DNA of 64,000 bases from Escherichia coli O157:H7 (GCF_013167455.1 NZ_CP038328.1); one strand, 5' to 3'; shown: positions 37,443 through 57,907, counted from the first letter of the stretch. Numbers and translations: made by a program. The notes: generated by a model from the sequence alone, not told the origin.

Positions 37443-38693
37443 TTACATATTCTTGATGATCGCGTCACCAAACTCTGAACATTTCAGCAGTTTAGCGCCT
37501 TCCATCAGACGTTCGAAGTCATAGGTTACGGTCTTGGCATTGATTGCGCCTTCCATACCTTTAACAATCAGGTCAGCCGCTTCAGTCCAACCCATATGGC
37601 GTAACATCATCTCAGCAGAGAGAATAATAGAACCTGGGTTAACTTTGTCCTGACCGGCATATTTCGGCGCAGTACCGTGGGTGGCTTCAAACAGGGCGCA
37701 TTCGTCACCGATGTTTGCGCCAGGGGCGATACCGATACCGCCAACCTGCGCTGCCAGGGCGTCAGAAATGTAGTCACCGTTCAGGTTCATACAGGCGATA
37801 ACATCATATTCAGCCGGACGCAGCAGGATCTGTTGCAGGAATGCATCAGCAATCACGTCTTTAATGACGATCTCTTTGCCGGTGTTCGGGTTTTTAACTT
37901 TCAGCCACGGGCCGCCGTCGATCAGTTCACCGCCAAACTCTTCACGCGCCAGCTCGTAGCCCCAGTCTTTAAACGCGCCTTCGGTGAACTTCATGATGTT
38001 GCCTTTGTGCACCAGAGTCACAGAGTCACGATCGTTAGCAATTGCGTATTCGATCGCTGCACGAACCAGACGTTTGGTGCCTTCTTCAGAACACGGCTTA
38101 ATACCGATACCGCAATGTTCCGGGAAGCGAATTTTCTTCACGCCCATCTCTTCACGCAGGAATTTAATCACTTTCTCGGCGTCGGCAGAGTCAGCTTTCC
38201 ATTCGATACCCGCATAAATGTCTTCCGAGTTTTCACGGAAGATAACCATATCGGTCAGTTCAGGGTGTTTAACCGGGCTTGGAGTGCCCTGATAGTAACG
38301 TACCGGACGCAGGCAGATGTAGAGATCCAGTTCCTGGCGCAGGGCAACGTTCAGAGAGCGAATACCGCCACCAACCGGAGTGGTCAGCGGGCCTTTAATG
38401 GCAACGCGATATTCACGAATCAGATCAAGGGTTTCAGCAGGCAGCCAGACGTCCTGACCATAAACCTGTGTGGATTTTTCACCGGTGTAAATTTCCATCC
38501 AGGAGATTTTACGCTCGCCTTTATAGGCTTTCTCGACTGCAGCGTCGACCACTTTCAGCATGGCTGGGGTTACATCTACACCGATTCCATCACCTTCAAT
38601 GTAAGGGATAATCGGATTTTCAGGAACGTTGAGTTTGCCGTTTTGCAGGGTGATCTTCTTGCCTTGTGCCGGAACAACTACTTTACTTTCCAT
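37443..38693 (-). CDS. icd: Isocitrate dehydrogenase (NADP)
   Basis: 416 aa, matches recalled E. coli Icd. Confidence 0.97.
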
Positions 38694-43368: not shown

Positions 43369-44040
43369 ATGCGCGTACTGGTTGTTGAAGACAATGCGTT
43401 GTTACGTCACCACCTTAAAGTTCAGATTCAGGATGCTGGTCATCAGGTCGATGATGCAGAAGATGCCAAAGAAGCCGATTATTATCTCAATGAACATTTA
43501 CCGGATATTGCGATTGTCGATCTCGGATTGCCAGACGAGGACGGTCTGTCACTGATTTGCCGCTGGCGTAGCAATGATGTTTCACTGCCGATTCTGGTAT
43601 TAACCGCCCGTGAAAGCTGGCAGGACAAAGTCGAAGTATTAAGTGCCGGTGCTGATGATTACGTGACTAAACCGTTTCATATTGAAGAGGTGATGGCGCG
43701 AATGCAGGCATTAATGCGGCGTAATAGCGGCCTGGCTTCACAGGTCATTTCGCTCCCCCCGTTTCAGGTTGATCTCTCTCGCCGTGAATTATCTATTAAT
43801 GACGAAGTGATCAAACTGACCGCGTTCGAATACACCATTATGGAAACGTTGATACGCAATAATGGCAAAGTGGTCAGCAAAGATTCGTTAATGCTACAAC
43901 TCTATCCGGATGCGGAGCTGCGGGAAAGCCATACCATTGATGTACTGATGGGACGTCTGCGCAAAAAAATTCAGGCACAATATCCGCAAGAAGTGATTAC
44001 TACCGTTCGCGGCCAGGGCTATTTGTTCGAATTGCGCTGA
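43369..44040 (+). CDS. phoP: Response regulator PhoP
   Basis: 223 aa, OmpR-family regulator. Confidence 0.97.
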
Positions 44041-45500
44041 TGAAAAAATTACTGCGTCTTTTTTTCCCGCTCTCGCTGCGGGTACGTTTTCTGTTGGCAA
44101 CGGCAGCGGTAGTACTGGTGCTTTCGCTTGCCTACGGAATGGTCGCGCTGATCGGTTATAGCGTCAGTTTCGATAAAACTACGTTTCGGCTGTTACGTGG
44201 CGAGAGCAATCTGTTCTATACCCTTGCGAAGTGGGAAAACAATAAGTTGCATGTCGAGTTACCCGAAAATATCGACAAGCAAAGCCCCACCATGACGCTA
44301 ATTTATGATGAGAACGGGCAGCTTTTATGGGCGCAACGTGACGTGCCCTGGCTGATGAAGATGATCCAGCCTGACTGGCTGAAATCGAATGGTTTTCATG
44401 AAATTGAAGCGGATGTTAACGATACCAGCCTCTTGCTGAGTGGAGATCATTCGATACAGCAACAGTTGCAGGAAGTGCGGGAAGATGATGACGACGCGGA
44501 GATGACCCACTCGGTGGCGGTAAACGTCTACCCGGCAACATCGCGGATGCCAAAGTTAACCATTGTGGTGGTGGATACCATTCCGGTGGAGCTAAAAAGT
44601 TCCTATATGGTCTGGAGCTGGTTTATCTATGTGCTCTCAGCCAATCTGCTGTTAGTGATCCCGCTGCTGTGGGTCGCCGCCTGGTGGAGTTTACGCCCCA
44701 TCGAAGCCCTGGCAAAAGAAGTCCGCGAACTGGAAGAACATAACCGCGAATTGCTCAATCCAGCCACAACGCGAGAACTGACCAGTCTGGTACGAAACCT
44801 GAACCGATTGTTAAAAAGTGAACGCGAACGTTACGACAAATATCGTACAACGCTCACCGACCTGACCCATAGTCTGAAAACGCCACTGGCGGTGCTGCAA
44901 AGTACGCTGCGTTCTCTACGTAGTGAAAAGATGAGCGTCAGTGATGCTGAACCGGTAATGCTGGAGCAAATCAGCCGCATTTCACAGCAAATTGGCTACT
45001 ACCTGCATCGTGCCAGTATGCACGGCGGGACATTGCTCAGCCGCGAGCTGCATCCGGTCGCCCCACTGCTGGACAATCTCACCTCGGCGCTGAACAAAGT
45101 GTATCAACGCAAAGGGGTCAATATCTCTCTCGATATTTCGCCAGAGATCAGCTTTGTCGGTGAGCAGAACGATTTTGTCGAGGTGATGGGCAATGTACTG
45201 GATAATGCCTGTAAATATTGCCTCGAGTTTGTCGAAATTTCTGCAAGGCAAACCGACGAGCATCTCTATATTGTGGTCGAGGATGATGGCCCCGGTATTC
45301 CATTAAGCAAGCGAGAGGTCATTTTCGACCGTGGTCAACGGGTTGATACTTTACGCCCTGGGCAAGGTGTGGGGCTGGCGGTAGCCCGCGAAATCACCAA
45401 GCAATATGAGGGTAAAATCGTCGCCGGAGAGAGCATGCTTGGCGGTGCGCGGATGGAGGTGATTTTTGGTCGCCAGCATTCTACGCCGAAAGATGAATAA
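44040..45500 (+). CDS. phoQ: Sensor histidine kinase PhoQ
   Basis: 486 aa, two TM segments, HisKA/HATPase. Confidence 0.97.
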
Positions 45501-50023: not shown

Positions 50024-50296
50024 TTAGCTGTCCTGGTAATTGCGCCATATTTCATCACCAGCACCATCTATACCCATTTCGGCATAAGTGCGATCGACTG
50101 CCTTTTTCAGGTCTCCGAAATTATCCGGCGGCTCCGGTGCCCTCTGTGCCTTCCTTGAACATTCCAGCCGTCGCATCGTGATGTGATGCCGTTCCTTGTC
50201 TGTCTCCACCAGCTGCATGACTTCACCCCATCGCGCCGCCGCCCTCCGGTAAAAGCCTTTCGCCTCCAGTTCCTCCGCTATGCGGTCATGTACCAT
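50024..50296 (-). CDS. Small regulator, possibly PerC-family (family assignment tentative)
   Basis: 90 aa from MVHDRIAEELEAKGFYRRAAARWGEVM...; resemblance to PerC/Pch is from memory only. Confidence 0.35.
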   Translation of the reverse strand: MVHDRIAEELEAKGFYRRAAARWGEVMQLVETDKERHHITMRRLECSRKAQRAPEPPDNFGDLKKAVDRTYAEMGIDGAGDEIWRNYQDS

Positions 50297-51167: not shown

Positions 51168-52566
51168 ATAGCGGCGCTACATCATCCCCATCGATACGAA
51201 TAACCCCATCTTTTTCCAGCTTGTACAGCCAGCGCCGGAAGTTTTTCATTTCATACCCCAGCTTTTTCATGTCATCACGTAACAGCGGGATCGTGCACTT
51301 GTCGCCGTTCTGTGTGCGTGAACGGATGCACCCCCATAGCGCGGTATGGTTTTCCGTCTTGTTCCCTGCCTCCTCGATGCGCTCCAGTTCAACAGGAGGG
51401 CGCGGATCATCCACCACCACCAGCGACGTGATTAATTCACCGTCAGCGTCGGTAAAAAGCTCCACCACGCGTAAGTCATATGCGGCTTCTTTGAGTTCCT
51501 CCGCGTCCTTCATTTTGGTGCATGAGATAACCAGCGCTTCGCTTCCTGCGTCCTCCCTGCGTATCCGGTATTCAGCATCCAGCGAAGCACGAAATGCACT
51601 GGAACCGCGCGCGCCTTTCGTCTCATCCTTGCCGGAATGGTGAACCACCAGCACCGTGGCCCCTGTGCGTCGTTTCAGTTCGTCACAACCACGGATAAAC
51701 GCCCCCATATCACGGGAATCATTTTCATCATTCCCACCAAAGCAACGCGCCAGCGTATCCAGAATAATCATGCGTACAGGTTTACCCGTTTCCCGCTCCA
51801 CCTGACGGGCAGCGATAACCATTTCATCAACATCAAGCGGGGCAGCCGGAAAGATGGGGCGGTTTACCAGATACAGATTTTTCACCTGCTCATCGTGCAC
51901 AACCTCCCAGGCTTTTACACGACGCGGAACACCTATACCGCCTTCACCAACCACATAGAGAACCGCACCATGTGCAACCCTGCGGCCTCCCCACTGGCGA
52001 CCAGTGGCAACATGGCACGCCCACGATCCGGCAAGGAATGATTTATAGGACCCGCTAGCCCCGTATATGCTGCATAGCGATACCGCCGGAATAATCCCCT
52101 TAACCACGTAATCCAGTTGCGTGTCGTATCCGGTAGATCCAACGCTCATCGGTAGCGTGGTTTTTCGCTGGTGGTTTTTTTCTTCCGCCGGCTCTTTCCC
52201 GCGCACCCGTTCCAGGTATTCGCGCCAGTTCTCCCGCATATGGCTGTGCATCCCTTCGGGGTAATAATTCGCATCAGTTACACCCGCCGCCGCCAGCTTG
52301 TGCGCAATGGCATTAATATTTGATGGCCTGATGTGGCCTGCCTTGTACAGCCGGACACAATAGCGCCCCTCGTCGATGATTCTCAGTTCTGCCAGTTCAT
52401 CCAGTTGATCATCAGCCAGCACAACGGGAGGCACATTATCGCCAGCCAGTCGCCCGTCCTGTTCCTGCCACTGTTTCGCATGTGCCCAGGCATCACTACC
52501 CGCAAAAATAATGACTTCGGTCATCTTGTCGTAAGGCTGTTTTTTTAAGTTCGGTGCGCTTTTCAT
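51166..52566 (-). CDS. Replication protein, RecA-fold P-loop ATPase (RepA/AAA_25-like helicase)
   Basis: 466 aa; Walker A-like GASGSYKS and Walker B-like RMIILDTLA; upstream of iterons. Confidence 0.65.
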   Translation of the reverse strand: MKSAPNLKKQPYDKMTEVIIFAGSDAWAHAKQWQEQDGRLAGDNVPPVVLADDQLDELAELRIIDEGRYCVRLYKAGHIRPSNINAIAHKLAAAGVTDANYYPEGMHSHMRENWREYLERVRGKEPAEEKNHQRKTTLPMSVGSTGYDTQLDYVVKGIIPAVSLCSIYGASGSYKSFLAGSWACHVATGRQWGGRRVAHGAVLYVVGEGGIGVPRRVKAWEVVHDEQVKNLYLVNRPIFPAAPLDVDEMVIAARQVERETGKPVRMIILDTLARCFGGNDENDSRDMGAFIRGCDELKRRTGATVLVVHHSGKDETKGARGSSAFRASLDAEYRIRREDAGSEALVISCTKMKDAEELKEAAYDLRVVELFTDADGELITSLVVVDDPRPPVELERIEEAGNKTENHTALWGCIRSRTQNGDKCTIPLLRDDMKKLGYEMKNFRRWLYKLEKDGVIRIDGDDVAPL

Positions 52567-52862
52567 TTCTTGCCCCTGAATCCGTTAACCATGGTTTTCA
52601 GCTTCTGGATGTTTGCCCGTGCCCTGGCGTTGCTGGTGGGCACGTTATGCGGCGCGGTCTGTACCAGAGAAAAATCACGCCGGAACTGATAAACAGGCAT
52701 CACGCAATCATATTCGTAACCTTCACGGCGGTAGGTTACGCGCCGTTCTTCCACGCCCTTAATCATTACCGTGCCGCCGTACTGGTCGCGGTAAATATCA
52801 CCGCGCGTAAATTTAGGGTGAGTGTTGCCACTGGCAGTTAAGCCAGAATATTTAAGTTTCAT
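52563..52862 (-). CDS. Hypothetical protein
   Basis: 99 aa, stop overlaps rep start. Confidence 0.35.
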   Translation of the reverse strand: MKLKYSGLTASGNTHPKFTRGDIYRDQYGGTVMIKGVEERRVTYRREGYEYDCVMPVYQFRRDFSLVQTAPHNVPTSNARARANIQKLKTMVNGFRGKK

Positions 52863-52867
52863 TATTT

Positions 52868-53101
52868 TTATTCTCCGGTGTGCTGTTCTTTATATCTGTC
52901 GTGCAATAGATCTATTTCTTGCAGTTCCATTATTACAGGCTCAAGAAGCGTTATTAATGCCGTGGCAATTCTTGATTTTTGTTTGTCGCGTTCATTGTCG
53001 CCAAGTGTTTCAAGCCATATGCGCAATATTTCCATCATGTTTTCACTGTGAGAAAGTGCAAGAAATGCGCGGTCTATTGTTTGGTGGTAAATATCACGCA
53101 T
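52868..53101 (-). CDS. Hypothetical protein
   Basis: 77 aa, tightly packed in the operon. Confidence 0.3.
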   Translation of the reverse strand: MRDIYHQTIDRAFLALSHSENMMEILRIWLETLGDNERDKQKSRIATALITLLEPVIMELQEIDLLHDRYKEQHTGE

Positions 53102-53558
53102 GGCTTACATCCTCAGGAAATTTTCTTCTATAACGCGCCTCTGCCACATATTCCGCATAATCGGCGGCGATATTCAGTACATCAAGCCCCGTTGATTTAT
53201 ATTCTCTCGTGGAAAGTAAGAAAAAAGCCGCTCTAATAAGTTCTGGCATTGACGAAAGCGCATCAGCCGCATCATCAGGAACGCCGGAAAATTCCTGTTT
53301 CAGGGAATTAAAACGATCATCACGCATAACCCCCCCATTTTCACAATCAGCAATCAGGATAGCTTTGGCCTCATTCAGCGCCGTATCAGCACTAAATTGC
53401 ATGACAGCCAGTGAGTGAGGAACGAAAGCACCGGCATATTCTGTTTCGCTGGTGGCGTGCTTATGTGCCCTGTCCGCGATAACAGAAATATCAATCAGCG
53501 CGTGCATCAGCGTTTTGATGGCTTCGGCGGCTGCGTCCGGTGTGGTTTTATTGTGCAT
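53094..53558 (-). CDS. Hypothetical protein
   Basis: 154 aa, overlapping neighbours on both sides. Confidence 0.4.
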   Translation of the reverse strand: MHNKTTPDAAAEAIKTLMHALIDISVIADRAHKHATSETEYAGAFVPHSLAVMQFSADTALNEAKAILIADCENGGVMRDDRFNSLKQEFSGVPDDAADALSSMPELIRAAFFLLSTREYKSTGLDVLNIAADYAEYVAEARYRRKFPEDVSHA

Positions 53559-53760
53559 AAAGCATCCCCTGAATATTCGTGTTAATCATTCCGGCACGTT
53601 TTGTGATTTCCTGTAATGATTCCCTTGTGGCGACAATTGCTTCATCTGGTAAGTGGTAATTACACACCACGCGACCTTTATCCACATTGACCAGTAGCTG
53701 CCCTGTGAATTTCTCACGAAACTGAATGCGGTTAAGGTCAGTAAGTGACAGATTAATCAT
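53548..53760 (-). CDS. Hypothetical protein
   Basis: 70 aa from MINLSLTDL...; RBS AGGAGG; ATGATTAA overlap with the upstream gene. Confidence 0.35.
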   Translation of the reverse strand: MINLSLTDLNRIQFREKFTGQLLVNVDKGRVVCNYHLPDEAIVATRESLQEITKRAGMINTNIQGMLYAQ

Positions 53761-53950
53761 GGCGCACCTCCTGACGAATACGGGCGGCAAATACAGCAAC
53801 ACAACCGGACGGGCAACGGTTACGCGCTTCGCGTTCCGTCCAGGCGGTTACGTGGATGATTTGAGATTCTCCGGCACTCAGTGCCAGAAAACGCCACACA
53901 AAGGCCGTTTGTGTGTGTACAAGGTGTGGTATATGATTTACGGCAACCAT
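53753..53950 (-). CDS. Hypothetical protein, first gene of the satellite leftward operon
   Basis: 65 aa from MVAVNHIPHL...; RBS GGAG 5 nt upstream. Confidence 0.35.
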   Translation of the reverse strand: MVAVNHIPHLVHTQTAFVWRFLALSAGESQIIHVTAWTEREARNRCPSGCVAVFAARIRQEVRHD

Positions 53951-54040
53951 AACGGCTCCTAGTTTACGTTGTTGGTTAGACGCCCCGTATGTGTTCCCAG
54001 CACTGCGGGGCGTTGATTTTTGTGTAATGGCAAGTACAAT

Positions 54041-54080
54041 GGTAATTACCATGTAGGTATAGCAATAAAGGGTAATTACC
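54041..54080. promoter_or_regulatory. Two perfect 10-bp palindromes GGTAATTACC, 30 bp apart, in the divergent control region
   Basis: Copies at 54041..54050 and 54071..54080, each followed by ATGT; the second abuts the RHH start codon. Confidence 0.5.
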
Positions 54081-54254
54081 ATGTCAACACCATTAGAAAA
54101 ACGTTCGCCTCCATACCAAATGCGATTACCGGAAGACTTCAGAGCGCAGCTAGAAGAAGCTGCTAAGGCCGATGGCGACACATCTTTAGCCACTTGGATT
54201 AAACGCGTTCTCCGCAAAGAATTACAGCAACGCGGCATAGAACCCAAAGGATAA
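54081..54254 (+). CDS. Ribbon-helix-helix (Arc/MetJ-like) DNA-binding protein
   Basis: 57 aa by manual translation (MSTPLEKRSPPYQMRLPEDFRAQLEEAAKADGDTSLATWIKRVLRKELQQRGIEPKG); below the ORF-track cutoff. Confidence 0.5.
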   Translation: MSTPLEKRSPPYQMRLPEDFRAQLEEAAKADGDTSLATWIKRVLRKELQQRGIEPKG

Positions 54255-54296
54255 AAACTATCAGCGCCGTGGTGTGAGGTATTACGGCGCATTGCT

Positions 54297-54485
54297 ATGC
54301 AGGACAACACAATGACCGATAAAGAATTGACCAAAACATTATCACCGGCACGGAAAAGACGGCGCAGAAAGATAGAGCATGAATCAGAAAGATTCGCGCC
54401 ATGTGCTTTTGCCCTTGAGCAATTCCTTAAAGAGTACAGGGAAACGCGCCCATTGCAGGTATGGCAACGAACTGAACCAGACTGA
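54297..54485 (+). CDS. Hypothetical small basic protein
   Basis: 62 aa with KRRRRK; downstream of the RHH gene, before the + strand terminator. Confidence 0.3.
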   Translation: MQDNTMTDKELTKTLSPARKRRRRKIEHESERFAPCAFALEQFLKEYRETRPLQVWQRTEPD

Positions 54486-54754: not shown

Positions 54755-54943
54755 TTAATGAACTGCCTTGCAGCTATCCTTCCAGGCCAGAACCTCGGAT
54801 AAAGACCAGCCAACGGAACGACCGCCAAGTTTACGACGTGATGGGAATTGTCCGGCCTTTTCCAGGCGGTAGCGACACGTACGGCTAAGGCCGGTTAGTT
54901 TTTCGCATTCTTTTTCACGTATAAACCGATCAGTGCTTAACAC
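54755..54943 (-). CDS. alpA: AlpA-family transcriptional regulator (excisionase-like)
   Basis: 62 aa; pattern ...LTGLSRTCRYRLEKAGQFP...GGRSVGWSLSEVLAW typical of AlpA. Confidence 0.75.
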   Translation of the reverse strand: MLSTDRFIREKECEKLTGLSRTCRYRLEKAGQFPSRRKLGGRSVGWSLSEVLAWKDSCKAVH

Positions 54944-55307: not shown

Positions 55308-56558
55308 TTATTTTCTTCTGGCTACTGGTAGCGTGGTTACGTTTTCATGTGTTCCCGCCAGTATCCCTAACCGCTCCGTCCACATATCCAGCGCATTGCG
55401 TTTCGCATCCAGATAACGGGAATGATTATAAACTCGCTGCATTCCTGGCATCTGGTGGCCTGTAAGCTGCTCCACGACATGCGGATCAACGCCTAAATCG
55501 TTCAGCATGGTTGTAAAGGTGCGCCGGATGTCATGCAGTGACCAGTGAGGGTGATTAAGCCTCCTGTGCGCTAATCTTCCATACTGCGATACGCTGGCCT
55601 CCTGTTTCACTTCCCCCAGCAATAAGCCCGTGTGCCTGTTCTGCTCCACCAGCTGCGTGATGAACGGCAGTATTGCTTCCGGTATAGGCCGGAATATGGC
55701 TACCTTCGTTTTGCTGTGCTCCTTCGGAACGGTCCAGAGCATTTCGGTAAAATCCCACTCGCTGATCTCCGATAACCTCAGTTCTACCGTCCGGCATCCG
55801 AACACAATCAGGAGGCGGATTAACGCGATGTAGTAGGGGGAGAATATTTTTTTGTCCAGTGCCTGCAATAATTCGCCCAGTTCTTTGGTGCTTAAGACAC
55901 GCTCGCTTATATCCGGTTTTTTCCCAACGTCCGCCACACTCATATCATCAAGAACGTTGCTGATTGCATAGCGCCGCCTCCGGCAGAACTTAAGCGCCTG
56001 TTTGCACGTCTGTAGCAAGAATCCGGCAGTAACAGGCGTTCGCTTTGCCACCTGGTCAAAACAGGCCAGCCAGTGCCGTAGCTCGCATTTATCCAGCGGC
56101 ATAGCACCAATGTGCTGTATTACGTGATTATTAAGGCGCTTTTTCAGGGCGGCATAATCCACGCGGTTTTCCTTTGCGTACGACTCAAGCCAGTAGGTGA
56201 GCGCATCGCCAACCGTTACCGGCTTTAACGCTTCCTGTACGGTGTAATTAAGCTCATGACGTGGATTTTTCCCCTCTGCCAGCCATGCGCGACACTGGGC
56301 GGCTTTTTCCCTGGCTGATTTCAGGCTCAGATCAGGATAATTTCCCAGCTTAATGCGTTCCGGTGGTGCCCCCCTTCCCGTTCCGGCCCTGTAAGTGAAA
56401 TACCAGGTTAAAAGGCCACTGGTTGAATGCCTGACGCTCAGGTTTCCACCGTCATTAAGAAAGGCTGTTTTTTGGGCGGGTGTGCCGTTGATTTTCCTCA
56501 GCTGTGTATCGCTCAGTTTGTTAAGTGCTCTGCTCATAATTTTGATTCCGGTCATCAC
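55308..56558 (-). CDS. int: Tyrosine integrase (P4/satellite-type)
   Basis: 416 aa; C-terminal catalytic residues; adjacent to the right att repeat. Confidence 0.9.
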   Translation of the reverse strand: MMTGIKIMSRALNKLSDTQLRKINGTPAQKTAFLNDGGNLSVRHSTSGLLTWYFTYRAGTGRGAPPERIKLGNYPDLSLKSAREKAAQCRAWLAEGKNPRHELNYTVQEALKPVTVGDALTYWLESYAKENRVDYAALKKRLNNHVIQHIGAMPLDKCELRHWLACFDQVAKRTPVTAGFLLQTCKQALKFCRRRRYAISNVLDDMSVADVGKKPDISERVLSTKELGELLQALDKKIFSPYYIALIRLLIVFGCRTVELRLSEISEWDFTEMLWTVPKEHSKTKVAIFRPIPEAILPFITQLVEQNRHTGLLLGEVKQEASVSQYGRLAHRRLNHPHWSLHDIRRTFTTMLNDLGVDPHVVEQLTGHQMPGMQRVYNHSRYLDAKRNALDMWTERLGILAGTHENVTTLPVARRK

Positions 56559-56584: not shown

Positions 56585-56785
56585 ATCGTTGCACAAAGGG
56601 CTACAACGTGAAACAAGCTGGAACAAGGAAAATCACAAATCTGTTTATAATCAAAAATATAATGAACAATCTGAAACATTATGAAACGGCAAAAAACACT
56701 AATTGATAAAATATGTCCATACTTCACGCATTACGTTAAGCATCCGTTATAATCGGTTGCAGATACCAGCCTGTGGATGCTTAAC

Positions 56786-57907
56786 ATGGAATACCAACTC
56801 ACTCTTAACTGGCCCGATTTTCTTGAACGTCACTGGCAGAAACGCCCGGTGGTGTTAAAACGCGGCTTTAATAATTTTATTGACCCGATCTCTCCAGACG
56901 AGTTGGCGGGTCTGGCGATGGAAAGCGAAGTCGACAGTCGACTGGTCAGTCACCAGGATGGAAAATGGCAGGTCAGCCACGGTCCGTTCGAAAGCTACGA
57001 TCATCTCGGTGAAACTAACTGGTCATTGTTAGTGCAAGCAGTGAACCACTGGCATGAGCCGACCGCCGCGCTGATGCGACCGTTCCGTGAACTACCGGAC
57101 TGGCGTATTGATGATCTGATGATCTCTTTTTCTGTACCTGGCGGCGGCGTCGGCCCGCATCTCGATCAGTACGACGTGTTTATCATTCAGGGTACCGGAC
57201 GTCGTCGCTGGCGAGTGGGCGAGAAGCTGCAAATGAAACAGCACTGCCCACATCCGGATCTGTTACAGGTCGATCCGTTCGAAGCCATCATCGATGAAGA
57301 GCTGGAGCCTGGCGATATTCTTTATATTCCGCCAGGATTCCCGCATGAAGGCTACGCGCTGGAAAATGCGATGAACTATTCCGTGGGTTTTCGCGCGCCA
57401 AATACGCGGGAATTAATTAGCGGATTTGCCGATTATGTGCTGCAACGCGAACTGGGCGGCAACTACTACAGCGATCCTGATGTTCCACCTCGCGCTCATC
57501 CTGCGGACGTTCTGCCGCAAGAGATGGATAAACTGCGTGAGATGATGCTCGAATTGATCAACCAGCCGGAACACTTTAAGCAATGGTTTGGCGAGTTTAT
57601 ATCCCAGTCACGTCATGAACTGGATATCGCGCCGCCGGAGCCGCCTTATCAGCCAGATGAAATCTACGATGCGCTGAAACAAGGTGATGTGCTGGTGCGC
57701 CTGGGTGGTCTGCGCGTATTGCGCATTGGCGACGACGTGTATACCAATGGTGAGAAGATCGATTCCCCGCACCGTCCGGCACTGGATGCACTCGCCAGCA
57801 ACATTGCGCTGACTGCGGAGAATTTTGGCGATGCGCTGGAAGATCCGTCATTCCTCGCGATGCTCGCGGCGCTGGTCAATAGCGGGTATTGGTTCTTCGA
57901 AGGGTAA
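56786..57907 (+). CDS. roxA: Ribosomal protein uL16 hydroxylase RoxA (YcfD), JmjC/cupin
   Basis: 373 aa from MEYQLTLNWPDFLERHWQKRP. Confidence 0.93.
   Translation: MEYQLTLNWPDFLERHWQKRPVVLKRGFNNFIDPISPDELAGLAMESEVDSRLVSHQDGKWQVSHGPFESYDHLGETNWSLLVQAVNHWHEPTAALMRPFRELPDWRIDDLMISFSVPGGGVGPHLDQYDVFIIQGTGRRRWRVGEKLQMKQHCPHPDLLQVDPFEAIIDEELEPGDILYIPPGFPHEGYALENAMNYSVGFRAPNTRELISGFADYVLQRELGGNYYSDPDVPPRAHPADVLPQEMDKLREMMLELINQPEHFKQWFGEFISQSRHELDIAPPEPPYQPDEIYDALKQGDVLVRLGGLRVLRIGDDVYTNGEKIDSPHRPALDALASNIALTAENFGDALEDPSFLAMLAALVNSGYWFFEG

Follow-up and report, generated by a model that had tools for sequence, protein, structure and literature searches.

The stretch of DNA analysed here, referred to as the window, is 64,000 nucleotides (nt) of the Escherichia coli O157:H7 chromosome (GCF_013167455.1, NZ_CP038328.1). 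It is 100% identical to TR01, 130 and NCCP 13918, and 99.8% identical to O55:H7 DEC5A. Between phoQ (44040-45500) and roxA/ycfD (56777-57907) lies an island of ~11 kb, at ~45.5-56.6 kb of the window, in which five small open reading frames (ORFs) are packed in front of a replicase gene. These five, which an initial annotation had taken for unknown genes at the head of a satellite operon, run from 53950 to 52563 on the minus strand and encode 65, 70, 154, 77 and 99 amino acids (aa), with exactly the coordinates first given to them:

53950-53753, minus strand: ORF1, 65 aa, the operon's first gene, with AGGAG 5 nt ahead of its ATG
53760-53548, minus strand: ORF2, 70 aa, a rare exchangeable cassette
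53558-53094, minus strand: ORF3, 154 aa, an in-frame fusion of two cassettes (c7::c5)
53101-52868, minus strand: ORF4, 77 aa, an acidic helical protein, constantly found beside RgdR
52862-52563, minus strand: ORF5, 99 aa, an allele of RgdR (DUF4222)
52566-51166, minus strand: replicase, 466 aa, a RepA-type helicase matching Pfam AAA_25 over residues 148-315 (E 5e-43) and phrog_2850

ORF1 and ORF2 overlap by 8 nt (ATGATTAA), ORF2 and ORF3 by 11 nt, and ORF3 and ORF4 by 8 nt (ATGCGTGA); a gap of 5 nt separates ORF4 from ORF5, which overlaps the replicase by 4 nt (ATGA). Every one of the five starts is preceded by a purine-rich ribosome-binding site. The NCBI annotation pipeline (PGAP) calls the same five genes in O157:H7 genomes that are 100% identical over the block, and each has a PHROG family match, with E values from 1e-23 to 3e-92. 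The crude ratio of nonsynonymous to synonymous polymorphism (pN/pS) among alleles is 0.42-0.74, and at 90% identity the homologues form 495 clusters for ORF3 and 525 for ORF4. As judged from this conservation, the five ORFs are real coding genes, not chance ORFs. Part of a 1.9-kb query spanning 52400-54300 matches 1814 of 5426 complete genomes.

The genes of the island follow each other in a single orientation: integrase, alpA-type gene, control region, the five ORFs, replicase, a 93-aa ORF, an SSB (single-stranded DNA-binding protein) gene, a PerC-family gene, and genes for the major capsid, head decoration and small terminase (TerS) proteins. These last three are the virion genes in the PGAP list, which has no tail or lysis gene in the island. 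With int, alpA and rep co-oriented in that order, all on the minus strand, the island has the gene order of Gram-negative phage-inducible chromosomal islands (PICIs), and at ~11 kb it agrees with their size and content (~12-15 kb, without genes for tail or lysis, though certain capsid or terS homologues are permitted). By gene order and content, then, the element is a Gram-negative PICI, as the word satellite had implied, and the block is its early zone, in which the operon opens with the five ORFs. Their location between control region and rep is a matter of observation; their transcription together with rep is probable. The two genes at the other side of the control region are the following:

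55308-56558, minus strand: tyrosine integrase, at the island end nearest roxA (from the ORF list and PGAP)
54755-54943, minus strand: alpA-type helix-turn-helix regulator and excisionase homologue, matching phrog_2790 (E 2.5e-17) and 45% identical to orf88/vis of phage P4

The same site, phoQ/roxA, and the same layout are known from O157:H7 O-island 51 (OI-51), also called CP-933C, which was first described as a highly degraded cryptic prophage (PMC3378721). Relatives of OI-51 have since been classed as Gram-negative PICIs, all of them carrying rgdR (Fillol-Salom et al., 2018; PMC6092414). At this site EDL933-derived WS4202 has a variant whose replicase is of the DUF927 type and whose small genes differ. 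Comparison indicates that the island of the window is a mosaic variant, or sibling, of OI-51/CP-933C, and not the EDL933 copy. Both have the skeleton int, alpA, Icd-like gene, small ORFs, DUF4222 gene, replicase, SSB, PerC-family gene (PchE) and capsid genes. They differ in the replicase, which is of the DUF927 or P4-alpha-like type in OI-51 and a RepA/AAA_25 helicase in the window, and in the cassettes, three in number, that separate the Icd-like gene from RgdR and are other genes in OI-51, with a distant relative at the ORF4 position only. Gram-negative PICIs have been described as having four zones, the second of them “dynamic” (PMC10111431), and it is to this zone, between those for integration and replication, that the block corresponds. 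The Bro-N domain typical of the dynamic zone is missing here, since a Pfam search of ORF2, ORF3, ORF4 and a 314-aa frame that ends in ORF1 returned no significant match.

None of the five proteins had been credited with a recognisable motif, and all had been considered unstudied. This is wrong for two of them: ORF1 matches the model NF033153 of the Icd/Kil family, and ORF5, a DUF4222 protein with an RGD motif, is an allele of RgdR, whose characterisation dates from 2012 (PMC3378721). A protein identical to ORF5 (WP_000770178.1) is named DUF4222 domain-containing by PGAP, and ORF5 matches phrog_285 (E 1e-32); relatives 30-35% identical to RgdR carry precomputed PF13973 matches, in keeping with the DUF4222 assignment. 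RgdR is ECs1581, the 99-aa DUF4222 protein of OI-51 (Flockhart et al., 2012; PMC3378721). It activates both LEE1, from the enterocyte effacement locus (LEE), and type III secretion; it also represses motility and is a non-specific DNA binder (PMC3378721). In published work, deletion of rgdR or of OI-51 lowered LEE expression, adherence, and shedding from sheep. The residues D10, R20, Q27, K35, H45 and R61 reported for ECs1581 (Flockhart et al.; PMC3378721) are all present in the WS4202 protein, and ECs1581 is the WS4202 allele. ORF5 keeps R20-G21-D22, Q27, K35 and R61, has A10 (D10A) and R45 (H45R), and diverges at its termini. Over the core (residues 20-68) it is identical to ECs1581 at 48 of 49 positions, H45R being the sole change, and overall identity is 81%. 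RGD 20-22 and K35 are the residues altered in the mutagenesis of ECs1581 and ECED1_1787 (PMC3378721). A matching core with divergent termini fits the published remark that the core is conserved and that the termini and upstream sequence vary between O157 lineages (PMC3378721). The orthologue C1493 of uropathogenic E. coli (UPEC), at 83% similarity, is functionally interchangeable with ECs1581 (PMC3378721). Because the RGD motif and the core are kept in ORF5, and because C1493 can substitute for ECs1581 at that similarity, the allele of the window is probably active, with a function in LEE1 expression and motility assigned by orthology. Its fold is predicted to be an SH3/Tudor-like barrel followed by a basic C-terminal helix; against viral structures, the matches are limited to uncharacterised small barrel proteins and DUF1653.

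A consensus promoter-like match lies inside ORF4 on the minus strand, at 52957-52929 (TTAATA, 17 nt, AATAAT, with an upstream TG), ~65 nt before rgdR. It could explain rgdR expression in an uninduced island; the total number of sites in the scan is no more than expected by chance.

To place the block among its relatives, 89 loci with RgdR relatives were gathered from IMG/VR, E. coli genomes and metagenomes, and the surrounding ORFs were clustered. The ~66 loci with enough upstream sequence display 57 architectures, around a constant skeleton made of int, alpA, a control stretch ending in the Icd-like gene, variable small genes, an ORF4-type gene, RgdR, replicase, the 93-aa ORF and SSB. A replicase directly follows RgdR in 89 of 89 loci, and it is a RepA helicase in 48, a primase in 34 and a DUF927 protein in 5. 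ORF4, which matches phrog_2196 (E 1e-42) and has a pN/pS of 0.42, is found immediately upstream of RgdR in 82 loci, or in 85 when distant relatives found by profile are counted. These associations indicate that ORF4, RgdR and a replicase are a constant unit, whatever the replicase type. Distant RgdR relatives on metagenome contigs (30-35% identical) keep the 4-nt overlap, there with a DUF927, D5_N/DUF5906 or zinc-finger primase. The first ~120 aa of the replicase (52200-52566 in the window) are common to the RepA, D5_N-primase and DUF927 replicases of related islands, at 41-59% identity, and this N-terminal domain has no Pfam match. A profile search of genome contigs with the DUF4222 alignment returned two loci only. 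In the lambdoid phages vB_EcoS-733R5 and ST101-KPC2phi6.3 (L007 and L008, from E. coli and Klebsiella), a DUF4222-like ORF (3501-3641, plus strand) is situated between a cII-like gene and the replication gene O; the depositors annotated the opposite strand there.

The genes between ORF1 and this unit behave differently. ORF2 (phrog_340, E 1e-23) occurs in 8 of the 89 loci, and a 121-aa relative in 15; its 29 homologue clusters all come from E. coli or E. albertii, and deposited phage genomes gave no match. ORF3 is composite, with phrog_5146 covering residues 1-73 and phrog_24341 residues 78-154. Its halves correspond to families c7, present in 52 loci, and c5, present in 57, which are mostly separate and are fused in 15 of the 89. 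The two matches identify ORF3 as two cassette genes fused together, c7 (residues 1 to ~76) and c5 (78-154), and a second fusion of neighbouring cassettes, c13::c7, was also found. Within the c7 family the N-terminal helix is conserved and the remainder exists in three or four very different variants. This distribution marks ORF2 and each half of ORF3 as cassettes that can be exchanged and that are confined to E. coli and its close relatives. The block-wide variability among related islands that the initial annotation had proposed to check is seen in part: ORF2 and the ORF3 halves are swapped between loci, but ORF4 and RgdR stay constant with the replicase. A paralogous origin of the helical cassettes c1, c5, c7 and c13 was considered and dropped, hhalign probabilities being below 2%. 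A search of ORF2-4 against PDB sequences, by single sequence or by profile, gave nothing below E ~1, and the Dps/ferritin-like four-helix matches of an ORF3 model (E > 0.01) were discarded as generic.

The junction inside ORF3 is formed by a homopolymer:

53330-53336, minus strand: poly-G tract that sets the frame between c7 and c5, with 7 G when read on the coding strand

The tract is followed by TTATG, whose ATG, the c5 start (53326-53324), is M78 of ORF3, and it doubles as the ribosome-binding site for this internal start. Seven G put c7 in frame with c5 and yield the fusion; with 8 or 9 G, c7 ends in one of two other frames and c5 is separate. The c5 half has its own start in every frame state. 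Across loci, 7 G occur 15 times, 8 G 20 times, 9 G 12 times, and 10 and 11 G once each. Because the length ranges from 7 to 11 even between loci with identical flanks, the variation looks like recurrent slippage, with the caveat that homopolymers are prone to assembly error.

ORF1 matches the Icd-like model NF033153 over residues 17-60 with 64.8 bits (cutoff 25; E 5e-18), as well as phrog_1743 and phrog_29966. The eta/kil gene of phage P4 (the old “cI” ORF) matches this model too (E 8e-21), and likewise the same PHROG, through its C-terminal 65 residues. The common domain is matched by a common size, P4 Kil being also 65 aa long when read from its internal start. By homology, then, ORF1 has an Icd-like domain and corresponds to Kil of P4. 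The ORF1 alleles retain the amino-acid motif FVWRF. A terminator-like hairpin inside the gene (53915-53895) was considered as a conserved attenuator and rejected, as other Icd alleles keep the peptide motif and lose the hairpin. ORF1 is also the end of an uninterrupted frame of 314 codons (54697-53753, minus strand), annotated by PGAP as a partial Icd-like pseudogene, an arrangement that recalls the nesting of Eta and Kil in P4. The 249 N-terminal residues of this frame have no PHROG or Pfam match, and on the opposite strand are two ORFs that do have PHROG matches, one encoding a ribbon-helix-helix (RHH) protein and the other 62 aa. Codon-position analysis did not discriminate, the DNA being almost invariant. 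A long Eta-like protein was therefore set aside, and the frame is treated as an antisense shadow, which is unproven. The 65-aa ORF1 is taken as the gene because it has its own AGGAG and ATG, because the 249 residues upstream are matchless, and because of the PHROG-matched ORFs on the other strand.

The control region upstream of ORF1 contains four features:

54081-54254, plus strand: divergent gene for an RHH protein of 57 aa, matching the Arc-like repressor family phrog_228 (E 1.5e-6) and weakly NF041551 (YlcI/YnfO)
54087-54038, minus strand: putative early promoter, with -35 TTGACA (54087-54082), a 17-nt spacer and -10 TGCTAT (54064-54059), from a consensus reading
54068-54084 and 54038-54054: two putative operators, palindromes of the ATGGTAATTACCAT type 30 bp apart, the repeats being confirmed
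53980-54013, minus strand: leader hairpin, followed by an invariant CT(A/G)ACCA (to 53973), ~30 nt before the ORF1 start

One of the palindromes sits in the promoter spacer and the other over the expected transcription start. The RHH gene, whose relatives PGAP annotates as YlcI/YnfO, is present in 20 of the 89 loci as eight alleles, each with its own pair of palindromes (for example GGTAATTACC, GGTGTACACC and TACGTACGTA) in two fixed positions about a TTGACA that does not vary. Since the palindromes co-vary with the RHH allele, there is good evidence for a specific repressor/operator pair, at the level of sequence. Whether Gram-negative PICIs have a repressor was stated to be unclear, and AlpA was shown to activate the downstream PICI genes in EcCICFT073 (PMC6092414). 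Islands of the EcCICFT073 type have in common with that of the window the co-oriented int, alpA and replication genes, the ~11 kb, the capsid and terS homologues, and rgdR; the window differs in having a divergent RHH gene and paired operators at the place where the 2018 paper left the repressor unclear. The literature on YlcI/YnfO or on a PICI inducer gave nothing useful. Immunity RNAs of the P4 type (C4 and isrK) upstream of ORF1 were also considered. Rfam yielded no match over the island at E <= 1 or over 53900-54320 at E <= 10, and found both RNAs in the P4 control, so this candidate was abandoned for the window. Two of 17 other loci tested do carry C4 and isrK (L059, 2677-2862; L083, 2888-3073), in the zone where the window has its RHH gene, so the control module is exchangeable between a protein and an RNA type. 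In the leader hairpin, 94% of cells are paired across 13 variants, with compensatory changes in 7 of 9 pairs. This degree of pairing was reached by 0 of 500 shuffles, and slid registers did not come close. The hairpin matches no Rfam family.

Downstream of the RHH gene is the 62-aa ORF (54297-54485, plus strand; phrog_21027, E 3e-16). Its DNA is near invariant, with 2-3 differences in 189 nt, in islands that have different versions of the RHH, alpA and int genes around it. Possible roles are those of a conserved protein, of an RNA, or of an anchor for recombination.

The closest known plan is that of the P4 left operon, in which orf88/vis, eta/kil, epsilon, orf151, orf106 and alpha follow each other, with 8-nt overlaps as in the window. 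There, control is exerted by the CI (C4) RNA and seqA (isrK) just upstream of kil, whereas the window has neither according to the Rfam search, and the replicase is of another type. Among alpA and ORF1-5, BLAST finds significant similarity to P4 proteins only for alpA (to orf88). Homology of ORF2-5 to P4 epsilon, orf151 and orf106 was looked for by BLASTP and TBLASTN, with nothing significant. A 29% stretch between RgdR and the N-terminus of orf151 (E 0.06 in a six-protein database) found no PHROG or NCBIfam support and was rejected. Of sid, delta and psu there is none in the island (PGAP lists no sid or psu homologues).

In the immI operon of phage P1, icd encodes a cell-division inhibitor and is translated ahead of the antirepressor gene ant. 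The resemblance lies in a small Icd-family ORF heading an operon that is translationally coupled and stands under an immunity element. In the window, C4 RNA and a downstream ant homologue are both missing, and division inhibition by ORF1 is a candidate activity by family. In one published case (Silas et al.), a prophage-like operon of six genes in ECOR61 encodes an Icd-like protein and a DNA primase, and causes growth arrest when a phage accessory gene is expressed; the arrest is probably brought about by the Icd-like protein.

Put together, these observations suggest that the five ORFs are the promoter-proximal genes of an early, pre-replication PICI operon, which would work as follows. A single transcript would start near 54050 from a sigma-70 promoter and extend from ORF1 through rep. 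The RHH protein would hold the operon off by binding its two allele-specific palindromes, until helper-dependent activation by AlpA, as in EcCICFT073, or loss of the repressor turned it on. By translational coupling, ribosomes would then move on from ORF1 as far as rep. After induction of the island, ORF1 may transiently block host division or be toxic, ORF2, c7 and c5 may be adaptor-like binders of helper or host proteins, and RgdR, probably with ORF4, would serve island replication or early regulation. The effect of RgdR on LEE1 and motility would be a by-product of a general DNA- or RNA-polymerase-binding activity. We give this overall picture a probability of about 60%, and any single step of the mechanism much less.

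Several observations weigh against it. The early promoter comes from a consensus reading and is absent from the list of a generic promoter scan. The RHH gene is in just those 20 of 89 loci, and at least two of the loci have the P4-type C4/isrK, so control differs between relatives. The AlphaFold2 model of ORF3 is all-alpha with a low-confidence pLDDT of 61.5. Near-identical RgdR alleles stand beside different replicase bodies, which argues against a replicase-specific partnership; a direct partnership therefore needs the shared N-domain or a host factor. Finally, the published phenotype of the rgdR deletion arose without helper induction (PMC3378721). It follows that rgdR is expressed in the resting island, which a single repressed operon leaves unexplained.

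The same genes can be read in other ways. They could form an anti-phage or abortive-infection module in which a phage protein is the trigger, the cassettes sense it, and the Icd-like protein brings the cell to arrest or death, thereby protecting the population or excluding non-helper phages. The mainstay of this explanation is the ECOR61 unit with its phage-triggered arrest, a likeness that covers the Icd-like and primase genes; the high mosaicism of the cassettes, with their variable helical segments, and the relatively high pN/pS of 0.4-0.7 would also suit it. The initial annotation had pointed in this direction by expecting helper-related or anti-phage genes at such a position, and that expectation has precedents in ECOR61 and in P4 epsilon, a helper-derepressing gene at the equivalent place; for ORF2-4 themselves, helper sensing or interference is speculative. 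However, PADLOC-DB 2.0 returned zero families at E <= 1 for the five ORFs, the RHH protein and the 93-aa ORF, and the same layout recurs in essentially all E. coli PICIs, within the replication operon and not in a cargo hotspot. A defence role thus seems unlikely to us, and would in any case be compatible with, not exclusive of, an early replication operon.

It is also conceivable that the block is host-adaptation cargo, a set of morons in which RgdR acts on LEE and motility, its neighbours modulate virulence, and nothing serves the satellite. The activation of LEE1, the repression of motility and the loss of LEE expression, adherence and sheep shedding upon deletion all speak for this, as does a PerC-family gene in the same island. 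But DUF4222 is also found in LEE-negative UPEC, in commensals and in distant metagenomic relatives, it is always joined to a replicase by the 4-nt overlap, rgdR is in all analysed E. coli PICIs (PMC6092414), and the DNA binding of RgdR is non-specific, so that we regard pure cargo as quite improbable. The least credible idea, which we would hardly entertain, is that ORF2-4, as decaying or spurious frames in what is left of a degraded prophage, yield no functional protein. The first description of the island, the dependence of the ORF3 frame on a homopolymer (possibly a frameshift lesion) and the lack of Pfam or PDB matches for ORF2-4 could be taken that way. Conservation contradicts it: ribosome-binding sites and coupled starts are kept, each ORF has its PHROG family, ORF3 and ORF4 have hundreds of homologue clusters, pN/pS is below 1, the ORF4 position is kept in 82-85 of 89 loci, and c5 retains a start whatever the frame.

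Returning to the early operon, a bolder and tentative version, which we consider rather less than probable, combines three proposals. DUF4222/RgdR would primarily be a replication-coupled factor of satellites and of some lambdoid phages, acting with the shared N-domain of the replicases or on host RNA polymerase through its Tudor-like barrel, and its effect on LEE would be collateral. The RHH protein would be the master repressor of a subset of Gram-negative PICIs, interchangeable with the CI RNA module of the P4 type. Lastly, the slippery G tract would be a genuine switch between split and fused cassette proteins.

The block singled out initially is therefore real and correctly placed, with the novelty of its genes overstated. 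The element was already annotated and partly characterised, and is not a new kind of system; the variability of the zone had been published as well (PMC10111431). What is added here is the cassette map, the fusion controlled by a homopolymer, the constant ORF4-RgdR-replicase unit with its shared N-domain, the predicted barrel fold of RgdR, a candidate repressor with co-varying operators, and a conserved leader hairpin. RgdR is cited as a regulator of virulence in EHEC O157:H7. Should its conserved task be satellite replication, one would have to reconsider how satellite induction relates to LEE expression, and lineage differences in the block could then contribute to those in virulence regulation among O157 lineages. 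For the silencing and induction of Gram-negative PICIs, the co-varying repressor/operator pair offers a candidate that can be tested directly. The three genes ORF2, ORF3 and ORF4 are widespread among E. coli genomes, yet have no assigned function.

Two neighbouring features complete the picture of the locus. The PerC-family regulator gene lies at ~50024-50296 on the minus strand (273 nt, from PGAP); its equivalent in the EDL933/Sakai island is named PchE (PMC3378721). A few kb from the satellite, a prophage occupies 1-37329, with its tyrosine integrase at 36187-37329, and adjoins the chromosomal icd (37443-38693); the known helper of EcCICFT073 in CFT073 is a prophage at icd (PMC10111431).

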